Source: a virus
Lineage: Duplodnaviria; Heunggongvirae; Uroviricota; Caudoviricetes
Length of the DNA stretch: 37,447 nt
Virus record (IMG/VR): IMGVR_UViG_2609459830_000021
Strand: one strand, 5' to 3'
Below the pieces are notes generated by a model. It was not told where the DNA came from, ran no database searches, and saw only the letters and a program-made list of their open reading frames with translations. Both the position numbers and the translations under genes were made by a program. Below are positions 11,003 to 23,306 of the stretch, in pieces (positions within the stretch are counted from its first letter, which is position 1; each line of letters starts with the position of its first letter).

Positions 11003-11049
11003 ATTTACGCATAATAATGCCCATTTTCAACACAGACAAGGGAATTTAT

Positions 11050-11631
11050 ATGTTAAATCAAACGCTAACAAAATCTCTTCTTATATTTTTACTTGTCATA
11101 ATCGTTTCTGTATCCATCATATACATTGTAAGAACTCCAGTCAGACTTGATGTGAACGATGTCACTGAGATTAACCAGAAACATCCCATTATTTTTCTCA
11201 TCCGGCATGGGGAAAGATGCGATCGCTCCCAAAGAATATGTCTTTCAGCACATGAGGGAATCACAGTAAACGGAGCTAACAAAGCTCAACAATATGGAGA
11301 TAAATTCAGAAGAATGTTTCCATACTACAGTCTCTATTCTACAGACACACTCCGAACAATGCAGACAGCCACTTTTTTTTCGGGAGGTAAGACAGCAACT
11401 ATTCCGGACATATCGACATGTGATGATAACGCAGTAAATAATATCCTTAAAATATCAAAATCAGATCATGTTACTGTGATTTTCACACATAATCACTGTC
11501 TGTCCAGAATTGCAAAAAAAATGAATGGATGGAGATTTAAACCTGATTATATGGGCACACTGGTTCTGCATCGGGAAAATCACAATCTGATTCTCGACGG
11601 ACATTTAAAACCAAACGAGCTTACCCAGTGA
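11050..11631 (+). CDS. Ais/PmrG-like histidine phosphatase (putative LPS core heptose(II)-phosphate phosphatase), signal-anchored; moron
   Basis: RHGERCDRS (RHG catalytic motif), GITVNG, YSLYSTDTLRTMQTATFFSGGK, VIFTHNHCL, FKPDY motifs line up with E. coli Ais as recalled; N-terminal hydrophobic segment; opposite strand to flanking late genes, AT-rich flank. ORF track start 11017 trimmed to ATG 11050 with RBS. Confidence 0.6.
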   Translation: MLNQTLTKSLLIFLLVIIVSVSIIYIVRTPVRLDVNDVTEINQKHPIIFLIRHGERCDRSQRICLSAHEGITVNGANKAQQYGDKFRRMFPYYSLYSTDTLRTMQTATFFSGGKTATIPDISTCDDNAVNNILKISKSDHVTVIFTHNHCLSRIAKKMNGWRFKPDYMGTLVLHRENHNLILDGHLKPNELTQ

Positions 11632-13335: not shown

Positions 13336-13581
13336 TTACATCATCATGTCGCTGTCAGGTGTAGGTTCACCGCCATCTGAAGCACTCCCGTCACCCGCGA
13401 TACCTTCCGGCTCAGGAACCGCTGCTACGCCCAGCAGCTCATCCAGAATGGCATCCACTTCTGCATCAAGACGCGACTCAAGATTCTGGCGAAGTTTCTG
13501 TTTCAGTGCGCTCCGGACTTCTTCAGAGCGCAGGACTTCCTTCACTGCCTCTGCAGTGACCAGGGATGTGATTTCTGACAT
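13336..13581 (-). CDS. hypothetical acidic protein (81 aa from ATG 13581)
   Basis: ORF 13336..13743 trimmed to internal ATG ([16 protein letters not shown]...) because upstream part overlaps the next gene; no family recognised. Confidence 0.4.
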
Positions 13582-13606
13582 GGGATTTTCTCGCTGAAAG
13601 GGGTTG

Positions 13607-13789
13607 TTAAGGAGTAACGGGTTCTTCGGGTTTGCTTCCGGCTGACTGACTGGCGCTGATTTTCTCAGCGGCCCTTTTATCAATCTGCCTGCACCAGAAA
13701 TCGCGCACAGCCCTGTACCCACCCGAAAGAAGATACAGCACACAGACCGCCGTACAGAAGTACAGCATCACCTGATGAATAAATGTCAT
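13607..13789 (-). CDS. hypothetical small membrane protein (60 aa)
   Basis: one predicted TM helix (YFCTAVCVLYLLSGG); ATG start. Confidence 0.35.
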   Translation of the reverse strand: MTFIHQVMLYFCTAVCVLYLLSGGYRAVRDFWCRQIDKRAAEKISASQSAGSKPEEPVTP

Positions 13790-13928
13790 AATTTCTTACC
13801 GTTATGGTTGACAATGAGAATTGTTTTCATTTAAAAAACCAATGTACGAAAGCATCTTTTCTTTACATTCTCCATTGGGATTACCTCCGCCAGCTTCCAT
13901 TCCTGCCGCTGGCGGCTTTTTTTAGCAA

Positions 13929-15839
13929 TTATGCGGCTGCTCCAGCTTTGTTTGCTTTAACTTCCACCGTATCAATAAGTACAGGGTAGGTTTCTGCACT
14001 ACCTGTAATATCCGTAATGACAAACCTGTTGAGTCCATTAGCAGTATTGGCCCATTTCACCAGGTCAAACGCCTGTCCATCCACACCATCAAGCACCGGA
14101 GTAACATTAATGCTGTTACTGCCCTTAAATTTAAATGCAAGCGTATGCCAGTCATGGTCGAATGCGCCAAACGTGCCAAGTTCTTTTTGTTGATTAACTG
14201 TATGATGGTATGCAACATTAATACTGGCTTTATCTGTCTGGACAAAGAAAGAACTCAGATGGCCTTCACCACCCTCACCCGGCCATTCCGCTATTCGCCA
14301 GTACAAACCAAAGGCATACTTGTTTCTGGTTGTCTCAAGATTGACGTTTTCGGGGATTTTAAACCGGACAGCAATTTCCCCGCCTTTTTCCAGTAAAAGT
14401 TTTGCCTTGTCTGCAGCAATATCACAGTACATTGACCAGGATTTCGCGCTGTTATTTTTCTCAATTCGCAGAGCTTTATTGCCGCTGTCATCAACCAGTG
14501 TGCGCCTGCCATACACACCGTCCCAGCCATAGGGTTTCAGCTGATTGTCTGTAGCTTTTTTGGCATCGTAAAAAATTACAGACTCTGAGGTGGTAACCGG
14601 TCTGTCTGGAACAACCACCCCGGCAGTACCATTAACAAACGCAGAAGACTTACCCGCGCAGCTCAGAATCGCCGTTGCCAGACGGTCGGAAATAATCCCA
14701 CGGCGAGCCCATGAACTGAAATGGCTCGCCCTGTCCTGTGACGTCCAGGTGGCTGAGCTGTCACGCCATTTCGAACCGTAATAACCGATACCCGGAATGT
14801 CCGGGTCTTCTTCCGGTTTGTTCGTCGGCACATTCACCCCGTTCTCATCGGTCATGAACGGTACGAAATGGATATTCTTTTCCGTTTTATTTTTATAGCT
14901 GCCGTACACCGTCTGGTACGTGGATTCGTTCTTCTGCTTCCAGAAATACGTCGTGTCCCCGCATATCCAGGGAACACCGCCAGCAGAGCCACCGACGCAC
15001 TGGCCTGCCATATCCGCCAGGTCTGCACGGAATTTATCAACCAGCGCACCAAACTGTGCGGCATGATTTGCCGGCGTACCGCCAAAATCAAATTCCCCCT
15101 GCATCCACACCACGGCAAACAGCACATTTTTCGGGTTCTTCTCCAGTGCCGCTTTTGTTCGACCGATAAGGTCCTTATACAGCGGCTTGTCCACACCCCA
15201 GCGGGGTGAATTCTCCGAGGCGCCACTCGCGTCACTGTATGTGCCATCAGCTCCGGTGGTGAACGCTGAACCACCACGACAGCACGGAACCAGCAGAATG
15301 CCCGCATTCGCCGGTATAAACGGCAGCAGTTTTTTGGCGATATGCAGCCCCTGCCCCACGGTTCCGTACTGCCCCTTTGACAGGTCCGCTTTCGGATGGT
15401 TAAGACGGCTCATGTCCTGCACATCATGCAGACAATGGTCCGCCGGAATGATGTCGTTATATTTGCATGCTGCACCGCCCGGTGTCACCGTACTGCGACG
15501 CGCTAACTGTTTAATACGTGGATCAGGGCTGTCGAATGTATCCGGTAATGGCAGTCCCTCACCGTATGACATACCATTGGACTGACCAGCAAGCGCGATC
15601 ACATAGTAATATTCTGGCGCAACAGAAGGCGCTGAGGTCGTCGGACGGTTGCCTGGCTCCTCTGGTGATGAGATGCTCCCCTCACTCACAACTGGCTGGA
15701 TGAACTCCGCACCATAACCAGCTGTCGAAATCAGCGCACTACCATAAGGCTGCCACCCTTCCTTCAGTTTTTGAGTTATTCGTTTCGCAAGGTCTGACGG
15801 CGACGCCGCCCTGACAACATCATAGTGTTTAAATGCCAT
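13929..15839 (-). CDS. nanS-p: prophage 9-O-acetyl sialate esterase NanS-p (N-terminal DUF1737-like domain, SASA-type esterase domain, C-terminal lectin-like domain)
   Basis: 636-aa protein in the position downstream of Q that in Stx2 phages follows stxAB; MAFKHYDVVRAASPSDLAKRITQKLKEGWQPYG N-terminus and central GQSN esterase-type motif recalled from 933W L0105-type proteins. Confidence 0.7.
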   Translation of the reverse strand: MAFKHYDVVRAASPSDLAKRITQKLKEGWQPYGSALISTAGYGAEFIQPVVSEGSISSPEEPGNRPTTSAPSVAPEYYYVIALAGQSNGMSYGEGLPLPDTFDSPDPRIKQLARRSTVTPGGAACKYNDIIPADHCLHDVQDMSRLNHPKADLSKGQYGTVGQGLHIAKKLLPFIPANAGILLVPCCRGGSAFTTGADGTYSDASGASENSPRWGVDKPLYKDLIGRTKAALEKNPKNVLFAVVWMQGEFDFGGTPANHAAQFGALVDKFRADLADMAGQCVGGSAGGVPWICGDTTYFWKQKNESTYQTVYGSYKNKTEKNIHFVPFMTDENGVNVPTNKPEEDPDIPGIGYYGSKWRDSSATWTSQDRASHFSSWARRGIISDRLATAILSCAGKSSAFVNGTAGVVVPDRPVTTSESVIFYDAKKATDNQLKPYGWDGVYGRRTLVDDSGNKALRIEKNNSAKSWSMYCDIAADKAKLLLEKGGEIAVRFKIPENVNLETTRNKYAFGLYWRIAEWPGEGGEGHLSSFFVQTDKASINVAYHHTVNQQKELGTFGAFDHDWHTLAFKFKGSNSINVTPVLDGVDGQAFDLVKWANTANGLNRFVITDITGSAETYPVLIDTVEVKANKAGAAA

Positions 15840-15993
15840 GAATCCTCCCGGCCGGGATAATATTGTGAGTAAAATAAGGAGCGGGCTGAAGTCCGGAAGT
15901 TACAGGACAATGGCAGAAGGGAGACTACAGCCCGCAATTCGAAAAAGGTCGCGCAGTTGCGCAGAGTGATTACTATGGGGTATTATTCGCCAG

Positions 15994-16060
15994 CTGAAAT
16001 ATTACTTCACGTTTCATTGTTCATTCCTTGCCGCCCGCGTCTCCCAGCGCGGGCTTTTTT
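15994..16060 (+). ncRNA. candidate small RNA (promoter-to-terminator unit) antisense-oriented to the late operon
   Basis: TTGCGC (15957-15962), 18-nt spacer, TATTAT (15981-15986), then AU-rich stretch and intrinsic terminator gcccgcg-tctccca-cgcgggc + TTTTTT (16033-16060). Confidence 0.3.
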
Positions 16061-16324
16061 GTCCATAAGAAAGCCCCTCCGGAGAGGGGCTGGAGAGTGG
16101 CGCTATGTGCCATTGCATGGTGCCGGGTGCCTCCCGGTGAGTTCAGCCCGGTGCCACTAAACCCGCGTCATTCTCGTTTTGATAATCAGAGATTATACCG
16201 TCACCAGTCGCCCCTCCGCTCAGGGGGATTCACCATGCAGTTTTTTCTAACAAATTCTCATCCGGGCAGACAACATTCAACTGACTTAATTGTGAGGTAT
16301 GTAACATTCCCGTTGAACGGATAC

Positions 16325-16354
16325 AAAAAAAGCCAGCCACCAGGGGAGGCTGGC
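16325..16354 (-). terminator. Rho-independent terminator in Q-nanS-p intergenic region
   Basis: minus-strand gccagcctcccctggtggctggc followed by ttttttt. Confidence 0.6.
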
Positions 16355-16534
16355 AAACTCGTAGAGCAAAATGCTGTTACGCAAACTTCGTTACAGGGTT
16401 ATCCTGCAATACTTAAAATATACAATATTTAGAAAACTAATAGTGCCATATGAGATTTTTAAGATTTTGTTATTAATTGCGGTCGTACCTTCCTTTCTGT
16501 GTACTTTCCGTATAGCTCACAGGATTCTGGGTAC

Positions 16535-16557
16535 AAAAAAACCCGCGCATCGGCGGG
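16535..16557 (-). terminator. Rho-independent terminator just downstream of Q (tR'-like candidate)
   Basis: minus-strand cccgccgatgcgcggg followed by ttttttt. Confidence 0.55.
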
Positions 16558-16604
16558 TTCGGCTGCGTGGCAATGTAACCACTCTTATCATGATATGCAG
16601 ATTT

Positions 16605-17039
16605 TTACGATCGTAAACTATTTTTTCGCTGATAAAATACAGAGCTTCTCCCTCCCGGCAATTCACGCTCAACATACCGATCCATCTCAAGCCTCACTCC
16701 CAGCATCATCAGCATGCCTTCAACAATCCCCTCCGCTTTGTGAAGGCGTTTACCTATACAGGTGTCAGAGCACCCATGTTTCCGTGCCAGCGCCATGAAC
16801 GTCTCCCCCAACACGTAGTAATCAACCAGCAAGTCATGCAGATCGCGATTGTTCCGGTAAAGGCGGGCTATGCACCCGCATATCACCATCGCATCATCGT
16901 CACAGCACTGTGGACGTGATTTTACTTTTTCGGGGATCAGTCCCTTAAATCCGGCAGCAATGGGCGACCATGTAACATCCTCATAGTTATTTACCGCCCA
17001 TGCCCCCCAGCGCTCAAGAACCTGCCGGATATCACGCAT
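16605..17039 (-). CDS. Q: late antiterminator Q (144 aa from ATG 17039)
   Basis: [36 protein letters not shown]…[16 protein letters not shown]…[23 protein letters not shown] matches the 21/82/933W-type Q family as recalled; start chosen at ATG overlapping ninH stop, alternative starts 17081 or 17138 possible. Confidence 0.7.
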
Positions 17040-17226
17040 CAGTATCTTTACCCCATCCGCGATGAACCATAAGGACGCCATTGACGACGGCGTGCTTTTT
17101 CGCATCTTTATCATCAATGTATTTTCTGACTGTAGCACGATTGCAGTTCAGTATTCTGGCGACTTCTGTCTGATTTCCCCTGGTGCAGATCAGTAATTCA
17201 GGTATCGTTTGAATTTTAGCATTCAT
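17032..17226 (-). CDS. ninH: NinH-like DNA-binding protein
   Basis: [55 protein letters not shown] parallels lambda NinH (…[42 protein letters not shown], from memory); ORF track start 17229 is TTG, ATG at 17226 used. Confidence 0.8.
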
Positions 17227-17588
17227 CAAATGTTCTCCAGTTCGGTGATTTTTATCCCCACTCTACCGCCAGGCACTTTCACGCCGCGAATTACGCGAAT
17301 GTCATCGAATTGCTCGTCGTCTTCCGCAAATCCGGCGTGGATAAGAGAGTCGAGTAAACCTTTCAGGATGTTATCGAGGTCGCGACGGCGGGAATCTGGT
17401 GGTTCAGCAATAATTGTGATGCGAAGTCGTGATTTAGTGAAAATGTCTAATCTGAGTTGCCGGATGATTTGCTGTACGTCTTTTCGGTATTTCTGGCCTT
17501 TATCGCTGATGTAGTACTGGCTTCCCCGTCTTCGCCAGTAGGTATTCACCGTCGGCGGCCAGGGAAGCACAAACTCATATTCATTCAT
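17226..17588 (-). CDS. rusA: RusA-type Holliday junction resolvase (120 aa)
   Basis: size and motifs (…VNTYWRRRG…DLDNILKGLLDSL…) typical of RusA; ATGA overlaps with neighbours. Confidence 0.75.
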   Translation of the reverse strand: MNEYEFVLPWPPTVNTYWRRRGSQYYISDKGQKYRKDVQQIIRQLRLDIFTKSRLRITIIAEPPDSRRRDLDNILKGLLDSLIHAGFAEDDEQFDDIRVIRGVKVPGGRVGIKITELENI

Positions 17589-17875: not shown

Positions 17876-18603
17876 TAAGCAGCCTCCCCTGTTACTTTCA
17901 GCATTCCGTTATCGAGCGGCTTTCTGGTCAGCCACTGTTGACCACGCCCGGTGATTTTTGTGGTGAACGAGATCTGTATTCCGTGATTTGTATTGACCGC
18001 TGTTTCTTTCACTGTGAAATAGCCGCGATCCATATATTCCTGCATTGGCACATTGCGCCGGGAACCTGAAGCAATAAGGATTTTGTGATCGCGCATCCAC
18101 GCAAACAGTTTGTTTGGACCAATACCAACAACCTTTGCAAAGTTTCCAATCAAAATTCCGCTGGCCTCGCCAACTCGATCGGCAAACTCAACTTTAGGTG
18201 CTGCGAGAGCAAGCTGTTTCTCCAGTTCAGCCTTCTGGTCTTCAAGGTCGGCCGCAAGGCGCAATGCCTCAGAAAAGGTTTGTGGTATTTTCGCGGTTGC
18301 CCCTTCAAGCTCTCGCCAACGGTCAACAAGACGAGCGGTGAATTCCGGCGACAATTGGGCGACGACAATAATGCTGTCTCGCTTACCTTGTTCGCCTTCG
18401 AAGACGTAAGCCTCGACACTACGGCGCAGTCCTAAGTTATTGATTTTTTCGAAAACCTGCAATGCAGGAAGTTGAATAACTCCAGATTCAGCCAGGCGCT
18501 CTATTGATATTTTTACGTTATCTGGACGACTCCCCACCAACTCAGCGATTTCAATGCTGGTCATTTTGATGATGCTGCTATTTATCAGCTCATTCATTGT
18601 CAT
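17875..18603 (-). CDS. Rha-family regulatory protein with C-terminal antirepressor (ANT/KilAC-like) domain
   Basis: N-terminal …TSIEIAELVGSRPDNVK… Rha-like motif and C-terminal …QEYMDRGYFTVKE… KilAC-like motif (recalled families). Confidence 0.55.
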   Translation of the reverse strand: MTMNELINSSIIKMTSIEIAELVGSRPDNVKISIERLAESGVIQLPALQVFEKINNLGLRRSVEAYVFEGEQGKRDSIIVVAQLSPEFTARLVDRWRELEGATAKIPQTFSEALRLAADLEDQKAELEKQLALAAPKVEFADRVGEASGILIGNFAKVVGIGPNKLFAWMRDHKILIASGSRRNVPMQEYMDRGYFTVKETAVNTNHGIQISFTTKITGRGQQWLTRKPLDNGMLKVTGEAA

Positions 18604-18629
18604 GTCCTCTCATATTGAAAATTCAGCAA

Positions 18630-18656
18630 TAAAAAACCCAGCCGAAGCTGGGTTTG
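18630..18656 (-). terminator. Rho-independent terminator after ORF6N gene A
   Basis: minus-strand aacccagcttcggctgggtt followed by ttttattg. Confidence 0.6.
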
Positions 18657-18671
18657 TTAAGTTGTCAATTG

Positions 18672-19355
18672 TCAGTAGCGATGCAGTGAAGGCGGCAACT
18701 CTTTGTTCTTAAGCCTTTCCCATGCCAGAAGGTTCGTCGGCCCGTCAGGCTCATAAATATCTATATCCCGCGTGTGATTAATTAAAACGCCCCTCGCCCT
18801 CCCGATGATATACGAGAACTCATAGCCGTAGTCGTGGCATATGCCGGAATAGCCAGACTGAATCAGTTTTAATGCGGGATACAACTCACGGAACAATGCC
18901 TGTGAGCGGTTGGCATAATCCCACAGCCATACAAGGCTGTCTGTTTCTTTTGCGGAAAGCCCGTTGGGCTTCTTCTCTTGTTTGCCAGTATTTTTCTCGC
19001 ACTGGCTGAAATAGCAGTCTTCCAGTTTTTCGAACACATCCCACGCCTGATCGGTTTCTAGCATTTTGGCGTGACGGGCTGCGCCTCGTTCTGTCCAGAG
19101 GATGAGGGAGCGAACGTTACGGGCAATTTTCACAGAGTAGTTAAAAGCTACTCTGTGCTTGAACTCACGTAAAGTTTCACCTTCAAGTTTGAAGAAGTGT
19201 TTTTCCTCAATGAAACGACCTTTGTTTTCGTGGTGATTCTGGCGAATACGAATAGCTTCTGTGCCGTAAAGGTGCGCCAAAAGTTCGGTAGTGATAACGG
19301 GGATCTGCTTGTAAGTAATCGTGGAGAGTGTTTCAACAGAGATTTGAGTTGTCAT
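18672..19355 (-). CDS. ORF6N/KilA-N-type domain protein, paralogue A (putative antirepressor, 227 aa)
   Basis: shares [16 protein letters not shown] and [39 protein letters not shown] blocks with paralogue B (20274..20939); C-terminal halves unrelated. Confidence 0.6.
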
Positions 19356-19513
19356 AATGACGCCCTCGAGTGGTTTCTTAATAACTCACCACCGACGACG
19401 CCAATCGTCTGGTGGTGAACTGTGCAGGGTTGGCGTAACCGGGAAACCGACCGGCGCGGATCTCTCCGCCCCCACACAGCCCACCATAATTCAGATGTGC
19501 GCGTGCATACGAC

Positions 19514-19593
19514 AATAAAAAACACGCTCGCGGCGTGTATCTGTCGCGGTCTCTATCCAGGACGCCAATCCCGACGCCAGATTTTGCTGGCGC
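19514..19593 (-). ncRNA. candidate small RNA A (promoter, 5' hairpin, intrinsic terminator) upstream of ORF6N gene A
   Basis: minus strand: TTGACG (19624-19629), 18-nt spacer, TATATT (19600-19605); 5' hairpin cgccag-caaaat-ctggcg (19575-19592); terminator acacgc-cgcga-gcgtgt + UUUUUU (19516-19538); whole unit conserved in copy B. Confidence 0.45.
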
Positions 19594-19808
19594 GTGAGGA
19601 ATATAGCCCCGAATAAATCATCACGTCAATCACCTTGTTTTCCTCGCACGATGTCTTAGCCACCGGATATCCCACAGGTGAGCCGTGTAATTGAAGGCTT
19701 TAACGTCAGATTCTTTTGGGATTGGCCTGGGTTTATTTCTGGAACGTTTCGTTGGAAGGTAATTGCAGTTTTCACAGACTATATCGGTAATGCTTCGTCG
19801 CTGTCGTC

Positions 19809-20219
19809 TCATTCATACCTCCTGTCGGTAAATCTGACACCCTGCTCCACAGCCCAGGAAGTTGTGTACTCAATCAGGCTTGCCATACGCTTCACGCTCA
19901 TCTGCGCACTGCTTTCGCGGATATTGACGTATTCACCTTCAAGACCAGGCAAAACATCAGCTTCCTGTTTTGTCGCCACGGCATGACCGCTGATTAACAA
20001 AACTTTCCACTGTTCTGGTTTTAGCCATCTGCCGCACCACTGAACCTGTCGGGAGATATCAGCGACCATCGCGTGAAATTTGGCATTTTGATCGAGATTC
20101 CGCTTGTAATCGGTGATGCGGATCGTAACGGGTTTGTCTTTATCGAGAGTTGTTGCAAGGATGGCGTTAATGGCGAATTGTTGCTGCTGCTTACTTCGGA
20201 GGAAGATAGTCTGGTTCAT
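19809..20219 (-). CDS. ninB: NinB (Orf-family recombination mediator, 136 aa)
   Basis: …[41 protein letters not shown]… parallels lambda NinB (…VTIQERNRSLDQNRKLWACLGDVSRQVEWHGRWLDAESWK…, from memory). Confidence 0.8.
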
Positions 20220-20248
20220 TATTCCCTCTCACTGGATTTTCCCAACAA

Positions 20249-20270
20249 AAAAGGAGCCGAAGCTCCTTTA
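20249..20270 (-). terminator. Rho-independent terminator after ORF6N gene B
   Basis: minus-strand aaggagcttcggctcctt followed by ttttgttggg. Confidence 0.55.
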
Positions 20271-20273
20271 GTT

Positions 20274-20939
20274 TCAGAATTCAAATTGTCTTGCCCGCAG
20301 GCTTTTCAGCATTGGCATGGCCCGCTGGATAACGGAACTTGACATGTCGAGACGTGTTACCTCCCTCAGTAGCGCGTCTCTGTTCTTCGTCACCATGTAG
20401 ATGGTCTCAAACGCAATGTCATACAGCTTGTTCGTGTATGAGGAGTTCAGCTCTTTCATAATGGGATACAGGTGTTTGCTGATGTCCTGGGCTTTTTCCA
20501 TCCAGAGCTGCATGTAGCAAAGGAGGATGATTTCTTCGGCTGTGAATTGTGGCTGAATCTGCGGCTGCTGTTCGGTTGGTGCTGTTTTTCCCTGGCTGAA
20601 ATAGCAGTCTTCCAGTTTTTCGAATACCTCCCACGCCCGATCGGTTTCGAGCATTTTTGCGTGACGGGCTGCGCCGCGTTCTGTCCAGAGGATGAGGGAG
20701 CGGGCATTTTTACCAACTAACCCGATTGTTTCGGGTCTGTTCTTAAACTCGCGTAATTCGTTTTTTTCAATTTTAAAGTAATGCTTTCCGGGCATGAATC
20801 GCGTCGTGTTGTTCAGAAAGTTATCAGAAATGTTTTTGATTTTTGTTCCGTAAAGGTGAGCCAACAGTTCAGTAGTAATTACGGGGATCTGGTTATAGGT
20901 AACAGGGGAAAGGTTTTCGACAGAAATTTGAACAGCCAT
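20274..20939 (-). CDS. ORF6N/KilA-N-type domain protein, paralogue B (putative antirepressor, 221 aa)
   Basis: see paralogue A; ATG at 20939. Confidence 0.6.
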   Translation of the reverse strand: MAVQISVENLSPVTYNQIPVITTELLAHLYGTKIKNISDNFLNNTTRFMPGKHYFKIEKNELREFKNRPETIGLVGKNARSLILWTERGAARHAKMLETDRAWEVFEKLEDCYFSQGKTAPTEQQPQIQPQFTAEEIILLCYMQLWMEKAQDISKHLYPIMKELNSSYTNKLYDIAFETIYMVTKNRDALLREVTRLDMSSSVIQRAMPMLKSLRARQFEF

Positions 20940-21101
20940 AATGACCTCGCGTTTCGATAATTTTTACCTCGCCACCGTCAGGTGCTAATCATCGTGGTGG
21001 CGAACTGTGCGGGGTTAGCACTACCGGTCGAAACATCCGGCGAGCCTTTCGGCTCCCCCACACAGCCCGCCATAAATCGCGAATGTGACTGTGCTTAGCG
21101 C

Positions 21102-21178
21102 ATAAAAAAACCGCCAGCGCGGTTATGCACCGTTTCGATATCCGGGGTGCTAATCCCGACGCCAGGTTTTGCTGGCGC
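21102..21178 (-). ncRNA. candidate small RNA B (paralogue of sRNA A) upstream of ORF6N gene B
   Basis: minus strand: TTGACA (21209-21214), 18-nt spacer, TATATT (21185-21190); 5' hairpin cgccag-caaaac-ctggcg; terminator aaccgc-gctg-gcggtt + UUUUUUU (21104-21122). Confidence 0.45.
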
Positions 21179-21281
21179 GTGAGGAATATAGCCCCGAACA
21201 CGCGACGTTGTCAAACTGATGGCATTGCAGATCCCTACGCAATGTAACACTATGTGTTATACATTAATAACGGAACAAAAA

Positions 21282-22905: not shown

Positions 22906-23061
22906 TTACTCCTCAGGTTCGTAAGCTGTGAAGACAGCAACCTCCGTCTGACCGGTTCGGATTCGTACCTCGCAGAGGTCTTTCCTCGTTACCAGTGCCG
23001 TCACTACGACGGTAATACAGATGACGATCAGGGCGACTAACATCGCCTTTTGCTGCTTCAT
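22906..23061 (-). CDS. hok: Hok/Gef-family type I toxin (51 aa)
   Basis: MKQQKAMLVALIVICITVVVTALVTRKDLCEVRIRTGQTEVAVFTAYEPEE is near-identical to HokD/RelF as recalled; overlapping upstream in-frame ORF to 23118 corresponds to mok. Confidence 0.85.
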   Translation of the reverse strand: MKQQKAMLVALIVICITVVVTALVTRKDLCEVRIRTGQTEVAVFTAYEPEE

Positions 23062-23104
23062 AGCCTGCTTCTCCTTGCCTTTCGGCGCGTAAGAGGCTAA
23101 CCTA

Positions 23105-23170
23105 CATATGTCTAGCATGAAATTGGCCTCAGATTAATGTTAGGCGTCTTGCAGGACGCGTAATGTTAAC
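23105..23170 (+). ncRNA. sok: candidate Sok-type antisense RNA overlapping mok translation initiation region
   Basis: expected by hok/sok architecture; plus-strand TTGCCT-17-TAACCT promoter-like elements near 23085-23112 and hairpin gcgtc-ttgcag-gacgc at 23145-23160; boundaries approximate. Confidence 0.3.
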
Positions 23171-23306
23171 TGGGGCTTTTCTCTGTCTGCCTTACGGTGG
23201 CATGCCCGAGGCAGACAGCCTCAAGCACCCGCAGCAATTCTACTTAACTCTCGCTTTACCGCAAACCGTTTTTACCCGATATGGGAATTCCCATATCGTA
23301 ATGAAT

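Follow-up and report, generated by a model that had tools for sequence, protein, structure and literature searches.

The Q-to-nanS-p interval of a Shiga toxin-free lambdoid prophage and its predicted small RNAs

The interval between Q and nanS-p and its alignment with Stx phages

The IMG/VR virus record IMGVR_UViG_2609459830_000021 (Caudoviricetes; 37,447 nucleotides [nt], all of which is called the window below) was analyzed around the junction between the antiterminator gene Q and nanS-p, a prophage gene of the 9-O-acetyl sialic acid esterase type. The late operon and all genes in this part of the window are on the minus strand. An earlier description made from the letters of the sequence, called the original prediction here, had placed nanS-p directly downstream of Q, across ~765 base pairs (bp) holding neither toxin nor tRNA; the interval (15840-16604) measured 765 bp, and ARAGORN and Pfam searches for these genes were negative. 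RefSeq has zero annotation between Q and the esterase. We conclude that the interval is very probably the leader of the late operon in a lambdoid prophage of the 933W type (Sepvirinae-like), with no cargo in its slot and with three, possibly four, of the small RNA (sRNA) genes that are standard for the late regions of Shiga toxin (Stx) phages. The features of the interval and its two flanking genes were as follows:

16605-17039, minus strand: Q antiterminator of the Q933/PF06530 type, 144 amino acids (Pfam Phage_antitermQ, E 2.1e-50; ~96% DNA identity to 933W Q)
16590-16617, minus strand: late promoter pR', TTTACG-16-TATCAT, found by consensus scan; overlaps the Q stop codon, predicted start ~16582
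16535-16560, minus strand: first leader hairpin with U7, ~+23 to +48 of the pR' transcript; 'possible rho-independent terminator' 20726-20748 of 933W (= 16557-16535)
16325-16582, minus strand: StxS-L homolog, the pR'-to-tR' leader RNA of 258 nt (near-identical alignment with Sp5, Sp15 and 933W)
16325-16410, minus strand: StxS-S homolog, the ~74-85-nt 3' fragment including tR' (RNase E motif GU↓AUU at 16412-16408)
16325-16356, minus strand: tR' hairpin with a T-run; 'possible rho-independent terminator' 20929-20957 of 933W (= 16354-16326)
16309-16316: empty cargo ('moron') slot of 8 bp (TCAACGGG on the minus strand), from pairwise BLAST and breakpoint inspection
16061-16266, minus strand: STnc100-family sRNA, homolog of EcOnc05/EcOnc27/sRNA103 (Rfam RF02076, 165.1 bits)
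16091-16072, minus strand: STnc100's own terminator, within the region matched by RF02076
15868-16060, plus strand: antisense Hfq-type sRNA, homolog of EcOnc08/21/42 of enterohemorrhagic Escherichia coli (EHEC) and of 'E2348C_1409.E2348C_1408.IGR' of enteropathogenic E. coli (EPEC), at 92-99% identity
16026-16032, plus strand: seed CCUUGCC of the antisense sRNA, directly 5' of its terminator
16033-16060, plus strand: terminator hairpin with T6 of the antisense sRNA (sequence inspection; conserved)
15833-15861, plus strand: promoter-like ATGCCA-17-GATAAT, found by consensus scan; its -35 lies over the nanS-p start codon (15837-15839)
13929-15839, minus strand: nanS-p, 636 amino acids, prophage 9-O-acetyl sialic acid esterase type (DUF1737, SASA and DUF6645)

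The N-terminal DUF1737, the SASA esterase and the C-terminal DUF6645 domains of nanS-p all scored above the Pfam cut-offs, and by domain content its product is a predicted esterase; RefSeq names it 'SASA family carbohydrate esterase'. DUF1378 and DUF826 genes come after nanS-p in operon order, and the order of the 933W/Sepvirinae-type backbone (Q933-type Q, pR'/tR', nanS-p, DUF1378, DUF826, holin, lysozyme) was found. Remnants of tRNA or toxin genes in the interval were ruled out by ARAGORN, which found no tRNA in the whole window, by the list of open reading frames (ORFs) and by Pfam, which matched none of the three plus-strand ORFs inside the interval (134, 81 and 67 amino acids). A terminator scan of 13500-17300 gave 16 terminator-like sites, compared with 4.1 ± 2.2 in shuffled sequences, and every strong site was kept in related phages.

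In alignments with Stx phages, window 17176-16323, which spans the end of ninH, Q, pR', qut and the two terminators, had 95.8% identity to 933W and to Sakai prophage Sp5 (stx2a) and 94% to Sakai Sp15 (stx1). This left block of homology ended at 16317. Homology picked up again at 16308 (phi296, Sp15) or 16295 (933W), and window 16308-15787 was 90% identical to the Sp15 region downstream of stx1B. Absent from the window at this point were, relative to the stx-negative phi296, 469 bp with ileZ-argN-argO; relative to Sp15, 1490 bp with stx1AB; and relative to 933W, 1786 bp with a tRNA promoter, three tRNAs and stx2AB (the Sp5 slot, like that of 933W, holds tRNAs and stx2AB). Neither stxA nor stxB was found between Q/tR' and nanS-p, where the slot holds only 8 bp and no ORF matches the toxin. 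Because the conserved blocks meet across these 8 bp and the tRNA and stx cassettes are absent exactly there, the locus is read as a Stx-phage late-region backbone with an empty cargo slot. The alignment with Stx2 phages that the original prediction had proposed for finding the stxAB insertion point thus put it at 16309-16316, and the suggestion of a stx-free relative of Stx phages was borne out, with 94-96% identity over Q-pR'-tR', 90% past stx1B and the cassettes missing exactly in between.

Of 5426 complete E. coli genomes, 64 had the empty-slot junction (tR', 8 bp, STnc100 module). No INPHARED phage record did, all seven near-full INPHARED matches carrying the ileZ-argN-argO insert. The 8-bp slot between tR' and the STnc100 module provides a clean reference for the insertion point of tRNA and stx cassettes.

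Across the junction, the window shares 851 bp at 100% identity with a prophage of E. coli O104:H4 outbreak genomes, which also occurs in a few further strains; the remainder of the window was only ~98% identical to O104:H4 str. 2011C-3493 and had an extra duplication. The prophage of 2011C-3493 carries RecE, Kil, CI/Cro/CII, NinB/E/H and Q and, after Q, the esterase, DUF1378, DUF826, holin, lysozyme, terminase, portal and an N4-gp56-type capsid, which is the short-tailed 933W/Sepvirinae layout without stx.

The pR'-tR' leader and its StxS copy

The two minus-strand terminators that had been predicted at 16535-16557 and 16325-16354 are both present with T-runs and are the terminators annotated in 933W. 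The promoter scan placed pR' at 16617-16590, where it coincides with the pR' annotated in 933W and is identical in sequence in Sp5, Sp15 and 933W; the qut site annotated in 933W corresponds to window 16576-16569. From the predicted start at ~16582 to the end of the U-run at 16325 is ~258 nt, downstream of a Q933-type Q. The last 74 nt differed from Sakai StxS1/StxS2 by two terminator-loop nucleotides and one extra U, and the seed region and GUAUU were conserved; relative to the window copy, the Sp15 StxS had one further substitution just upstream. The stretch CCCUGUAACGAA of the StxS copy, which we take to be the rpoS-pairing stretch from the way DsrA pairs with rpoS, is the same in the window and in Sakai. 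The fold of the StxS-S homolog had z = -3.3. Rfam also returned weak matches to RprA, DsrA and Qrr over 16322-16438; these were far below threshold, echo the StxS terminator and rpoS-type seed, and were given no weight.

In the Stx1 and Stx2a phages of Sakai, pR' is constitutively active, its start site was mapped by differential RNA sequencing and the 3' end of the transcript was mapped by Term-seq to tR', 258 nt downstream (Sy et al., 2020; PMC7547250). RNase E cleaves GU↓AUU at +173 to give a 3' fragment of ~74 nt, StxS, an Hfq-binding RNA that activates rpoS and represses stx1B (Sy et al., 2020; PMC7547250). Because the 258-nt spacing, GUAUU and the last 74 nt are conserved, the second minus-strand terminator of the window is identified as tR' and the interval as encoding a StxS copy. 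The window shares with the phages encoding StxS (EcOnc15) the Q type, pR', the pR'-tR' spacing and the GU↓AUU motif. Unlike them, the prophage has no stx, hence no cis-linked stx1B target, and unlike the Stx2a phages it has no tRNA promoter or tRNA genes past tR'. Since its sequence is the same as that of the Sakai copy, the StxS of the window should activate rpoS translation in trans.

The first leader hairpin, with an 8-bp stem and U7, has the look of an efficient intrinsic terminator and is not the 3' end mapped in the Sakai homologs, where it is evidently read through; it might serve as a pause, in Q loading or in partial termination.

The original prediction had instead put a candidate late promoter with a short terminated transcript at a minus-strand TATAAT (16192-16197). 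This hexamer has no -35, is absent from the 933W and Nil3 copies and falls within STnc100, in the variable central loop of the model; the late promoter is pR' at 16617-16590. STnc100, the largest RNA element of the interval, and the pR'-tR' leader, which is StxS, had both escaped that description.

STnc100 and a convergent antisense sRNA

The RF02076 match covered positions 1-206 of the 206-position model, full length, the gathering score of the model being 47. The STnc100 copy of the window was 79% identical to the 933W copy and 98% to the phi296 copy, the centre being variable between copies. The published Northern probes for EcOnc27 and EcOnc05 map into RNAs homologous to it. EcOnc27, which lies downstream of stx2B in Sp5 and is the same as sRNA103, gave a peak in cross-linking and analysis of cDNA with Hfq (Hfq-CRAC) and Northern bands of ~235/247 nt, and EcOnc05 of Sp4 gave an Hfq-CRAC peak and a band of ~222 nt (Tree et al., 2014). 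The identity of STnc100, EcOnc27 and sRNA103 is stated in PMC12711010, and eleven STnc100 copies are present and expressed in EDL933. These homologs are thus Hfq-bound RNAs of ~220-247 nt. STnc100, EcOnc27, EcOnc05 and sRNA103 share with the window element a position between the cargo slot and nanS-p and a terminator of their own. STnc100 is related to PasD (Zhu et al., 2026); unlike PasD, the copy in the window was found by sequence inspection to lack the UGUGAG seed reported for that RNA. By transfer from the homologs, the window copy would be a discrete Hfq-associated RNA of ~200-250 nt.

The right-hand block of homology begins in all relatives with AATGTTAnAT..C(A/T)CAATTnAGnCAGTTG (at 16270-16308, minus strand), right at the cargo boundary. 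It may include the -10 (CACAAT) of the RNA of STnc100 type, in which case the ~220 nt seen on Northern blots would agree.

On the plus strand, the hairpin with T6 at 16033-16060 ends an element with homologs at 92-99% identity over ~256 nt in Sp4, Sp15, EPEC E2348/69 PP6, Nil3 and phi296 (92.5-94.2% over 255-257 nt to Sp4, EPEC PP6 and Sp15; 99% to phi296). Homology to EcOnc08/21/42 extends over the full RNA; as in that family, the seed adjoins the terminator of an RNA that runs antisense to the late operon, nanS-p leader included, and converges on STnc100. CCUUGCC was invariant in six homologs, as was the terminator stem, which is the same in Sp4 and EPEC PP6 as in the window, save for one substitution in Sp15. 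The window differs from the homologs by a few substitutions 5' of the seed (UUUCAUUGUUC in the window, UUUUGUUGUUU in the homologs). Among the 5426 complete E. coli genomes, 1117 carried the family, with at most six copies per genome, always unannotated. The family is unnamed and has neither an Rfam model nor a validated function.

'Convergent sRNAs' have been described between the moron coding sequence and the conserved downstream ORF of lambdoid prophages (Tree et al., 2014). In Sakai, EcOnc08 and EcOnc21 (Sp4) and EcOnc42 (Sp15) gave Hfq-CRAC peaks and a Northern band of ~271 nt (Tree et al., 2014). Relative to NC_002695.2, the coordinates of that study had an offset of 0 at Sp4 and of ~+140 at Sp5 and Sp15; because the offsets differ between prophages, the probe sequences were taken as anchors. 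The EcOnc08/21/42 probe has the sequence of the late-operon strand and is equivalent to window 15955-15990, the stretch in which the original prediction saw a promoter; it is exact in Sp4, Sp15, PP6 and Nil3 and has six mismatches in the window. The Sp4 Hfq peaks convert to window 15986-16058 (EcOnc08) and 15895-15980 (EcOnc21).

In EPEC, RNA interaction by ligation and sequencing (RIL-seq) identified 'E2348C_1409.E2348C_1408.IGR', an RNA of 182 nt that corresponds to window 15880-16060 and is homologous to EcOnc08/21/42 according to the authors' Table S6 note (Pearl Mizrahi et al., 2021). It formed 767 chimeras with the cfa 5' untranslated region, its other partners include dppA, tir, emrA, pcm, espC, gadX and perA, and its target motif is GGCAAGG/GGCAGGG (Table S7; Pearl Mizrahi et al., 2021). 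The CCUUGCC of the window is complementary to GGCAAGG, and a single-stranded CCUUGCC 5' of the terminator is likely to be an Hfq-dependent seed.

The promoter-like ATGCCA-17-GATAAT is kept in phi296, Sp4, EPEC PP6 and Sp15, and its predicted start (~15868) is close to the 5' boundary seen by RNA sequencing in EPEC, equivalent to 15880. For the ~271-nt size of Sakai, which needs a start at ~15790, neither inspection by eye nor the consensus scan gave a convincing promoter.

AsxR, AgvB and EcOnc03 (RF02703, RF02702) occupy the same slot in the same orientation, 3' of the cargo and convergent with an STnc100-type RNA. They differ from the window RNA in sequence, in their length of 51-60 nt and in a conserved 3' 42 nt (GUAUCUCAUGC..UUGCCCGAACCCAYUCGGGC). 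Membership of the plus-strand RNA in this group was rejected, the sequence being different and 13700-16700 giving no RF02703 or RF02702 match at E ≤ 10. In 933W and Sp5 the antisense member of the slot is AsxR, a trans-acting sRNA sponge of 54 nt, and a 149-bp segment of the window (16113-15965) had no blastn match to 933W.

Sequence identity, module boundaries, Rfam membership and the conservation of seeds and terminators were obtained in this analysis; transcription, Hfq binding, RNase E processing and targets come from papers on the homologs, and we infer the same behavior for the copies in the window. In a lysogen, pR' would fire constitutively and its transcript would end at tR' (~16325), and an RNase E cut at GU↓AUU would release the StxS copy of ~74-85 nt, to act in trans on rpoS. 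STnc100 and the EcOnc42-type RNA would be made from their own promoters and bind Hfq. The latter probably starts at ~15868 and ends at the 16033-16060 terminator, and its CCUUGCC seed would pair with GGCAAGG-type sites, as found in cfa, dppA, tir and other targets in EPEC. A further antisense RNA may end at 13923. Upon induction, Q would load at pR'/qut, and the Q-modified RNA polymerase would pass the leader hairpin, tR' and the terminator of STnc100 to enter nanS-p and the lysis genes.

Several points weigh against this picture. The functional evidence stems entirely from other copies with 90-100% identity, neither STnc100 nor the antisense sRNA has an established function in any strain, and sequence variation was too low for a covariation test of any structure. 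Sizes for the antisense RNA of ~271 nt (Sakai Northern), 182 nt (EPEC RNA sequencing) and ~193 nt (predicted promoter) leave its 5' end uncertain, and at minimum energy its long form folds with part of the seed paired. The published 3' end is at +258 even though the first leader hairpin looks strong.

The antisense RNA might act mainly in cis, with convergent transcription or duplex formation damping the expression of nanS-p and late genes that read-through causes in lysogens, and with trans targets being secondary. Its -35 (15833-15838) lies over the nanS-p ATG (15837-15839), over 15868-16060 its body has full antisense complementarity to the nanS-p 5' leader, and this arrangement upstream of nanS-p is kept in Sp4, Sp15, EPEC PP6 and phi296. 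We consider a mainly cis role unlikely: the RIL-seq partners are mostly trans and share the seed-complementary motif, and the 933W/Sp5 slot holds the unrelated trans-acting AsxR.

Still less probable is the arrangement set out in the original prediction, in which an independent plus-strand sRNA of ~67 nt (15994-16060) would arise from TTGCGC-18-TATTAT (15957-15986) and the minus-strand TATAAT would serve as the late promoter of a short terminated transcript. Its plus-strand terminator does end a genuine antisense sRNA; the size and the promoter are doubtful. The hexamers exist in the sequence. The EcOnc08 Hfq-CRAC peak (equivalent to 15986-16058) is almost exactly the proposed short RNA, a 71-nt form folds well and leaves the seed free (z = -3.4), and the Northern probe lies upstream of the proposed start, where it is unable to detect such a species; for these three reasons a 3' species of ~70 nt is possible. 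However, TTGCGC agrees with the -35 consensus at only 3 of 6 positions and both proposed promoters fail the consensus scan; RNAs of the homologs run across the supposed plus-strand promoter (the ~271-nt probe-positive band, the EcOnc21 peak at 15895-15980 and the 182-nt EPEC RNA); the TATAAT has the defects given above; pR' is mapped elsewhere; and no data require the short species.

That the hairpins are inert leftovers of deleted stx- or tRNA-flanking DNA, or insulating terminators with no RNA product of their own, is highly improbable: the same sequences do flank stx in Stx phages, the functional evidence comes from homologs and covariation support is nil, but phages with and without stx, as well as 1117 of 5426 E. 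coli genomes, retain the elements at 90-100% identity, the window copies have undamaged promoters and seeds, and the homologs gave peaks in Hfq-CRAC, bands on Northern blots and chimeras in RIL-seq (767 with cfa), StxS also having validated targets.

The late-operon leader with an empty cargo slot is therefore retained as the best reading, and the sRNA cargo that had been suspected at the locus is upheld by homologs with Hfq-CRAC, Northern and RIL-seq evidence. Because its hairpins belong to sRNAs described in EHEC and EPEC, the interval is ordinary though unannotated; left blank in RefSeq, it very probably has genes for an EcOnc42-type sRNA and for copies of StxS and STnc100. All of its well-supported content is already in the literature, and only the candidate RNA at 13844-13923 is undocumented. 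On this reading, the 'Shiga-toxin-associated' sRNAs travel with the late-region backbone and not with the toxin, so that a strain of the O104:H4 type would have StxS-type and EcOnc42-type regulators in a toxin-free prophage. Such extra copies would add to the copy number of RNAs acting in trans on rpoS, cfa, dppA or tir.

A candidate RNA past the nanS-p stop codon and other features of the window

A second plus-strand terminator had been predicted at 13893-13922, and a hairpin with T7 is indeed present at 13887-13923. The features there were as follows:

13844-13923, plus strand: candidate RNA of ~80 nt, antisense to the nanS-p/DUF1378 spacer (hairpin and upstream promoter-like sequence)
13887-13923, plus strand: terminator with stem 13887-13894 / 13908-13915 and U7, 5 bp beyond the nanS-p stop codon

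The plus strand has a perfect TTGACA further upstream (13808-13813) and, after 17 or 18 bp, TTAAAA or TAAAAA, and an RNA ending at 13923 is plausible from these sequence features. The predicted RNA fold had z = -2.7, and the 220 bp flanking the hairpin were 86% identical to 933W and Sp15. The element was present in 299 of the 5426 E. coli genomes. A scan of IMG/VR gave 96 extractable copies, 74 of them similar to the window element, that amounted to only 18 variants of two types. TTGACA was invariant in these variants, and the element has a conserved UUCUCCAU stretch and a strong terminator. No compensatory changes were seen in the hairpins among the 18 variants, one of which breaks a stem pair; with so few variants, of only two types, covariation had nothing to test on. 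The 5' hairpin predicted in the window is not kept in the 933W type.

PasA and PasC of EPEC and EcOnc52 of Sakai Sp4 are antisense RNAs just past the esterase stop codon, in the same slot, and each ends in a GCCAGC...GCUGGC terminator. Homology to them was rejected: local alignments covered only 10-17 nt of terminator arm and U-run, with scores of 20-22 compared with shuffle means of 13.5-14.5 (SD ~2.3). A match to Esr41 (RF02676) at 13849-13923 (plus strand) scored 20.7 bits (E 0.85), far short of the gathering score of 102, and was discarded as noise. The window thus carries the 933W/Sp15 variant of the post-esterase slot and not the PasA/PasC/EcOnc52 sequence, and a literature search turned up neither an Hfq peak nor an RNA reported for it in homologs. 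We only tentatively propose that 13844-13923 is an undescribed Hfq-type sRNA of 933W/Sp15-type phages, analogous but not homologous to PasA, PasC and EcOnc52. Were this true, every intergenic gap examined from Q to DUF1378 would be an sRNA landing pad.

Past the esterase of EPEC E2348/69 PP2, an EcOnc52-like terminator element lies at the stop codon and PasA ~150 bp further, both antisense; because PP2 carries two there, the post-esterase gap can hold more than one antisense RNA.

The nanS-p gene itself is mosaic. Its N-terminal two thirds (within 14667-15964, minus strand) is 98.5% identical to 933W L0105, the C-terminal ~245 amino acids (DUF6645 region, 13929-14666) had no blastn match to 933W, and the DNA directly past the stop codon is, unlike this C-terminal part, again 86% like 933W.

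Elsewhere in the window, two tandem sets of C4 antisense RNA, isrK and c4-a1b1 (19408-19606 and 20993-21191, both minus strand) scored above the Rfam thresholds; such sets are P1/Gifsy-type antirepressor immunity modules. A duplication or insert at ~17876-20843 sets the window apart from O104:H4 2011C-3493. A sok antitoxin RNA (23056-23230, minus strand, 114 bits) adjoins a hokD-type toxin gene in the early region of the prophage. Just past the lysis genes, on the strand opposite to the late operon, is a gene for lipopolysaccharide core heptose(II)-phosphate phosphatase (11017-11631, plus strand), in a cargo position resembling that of bor in lambda and 933W.

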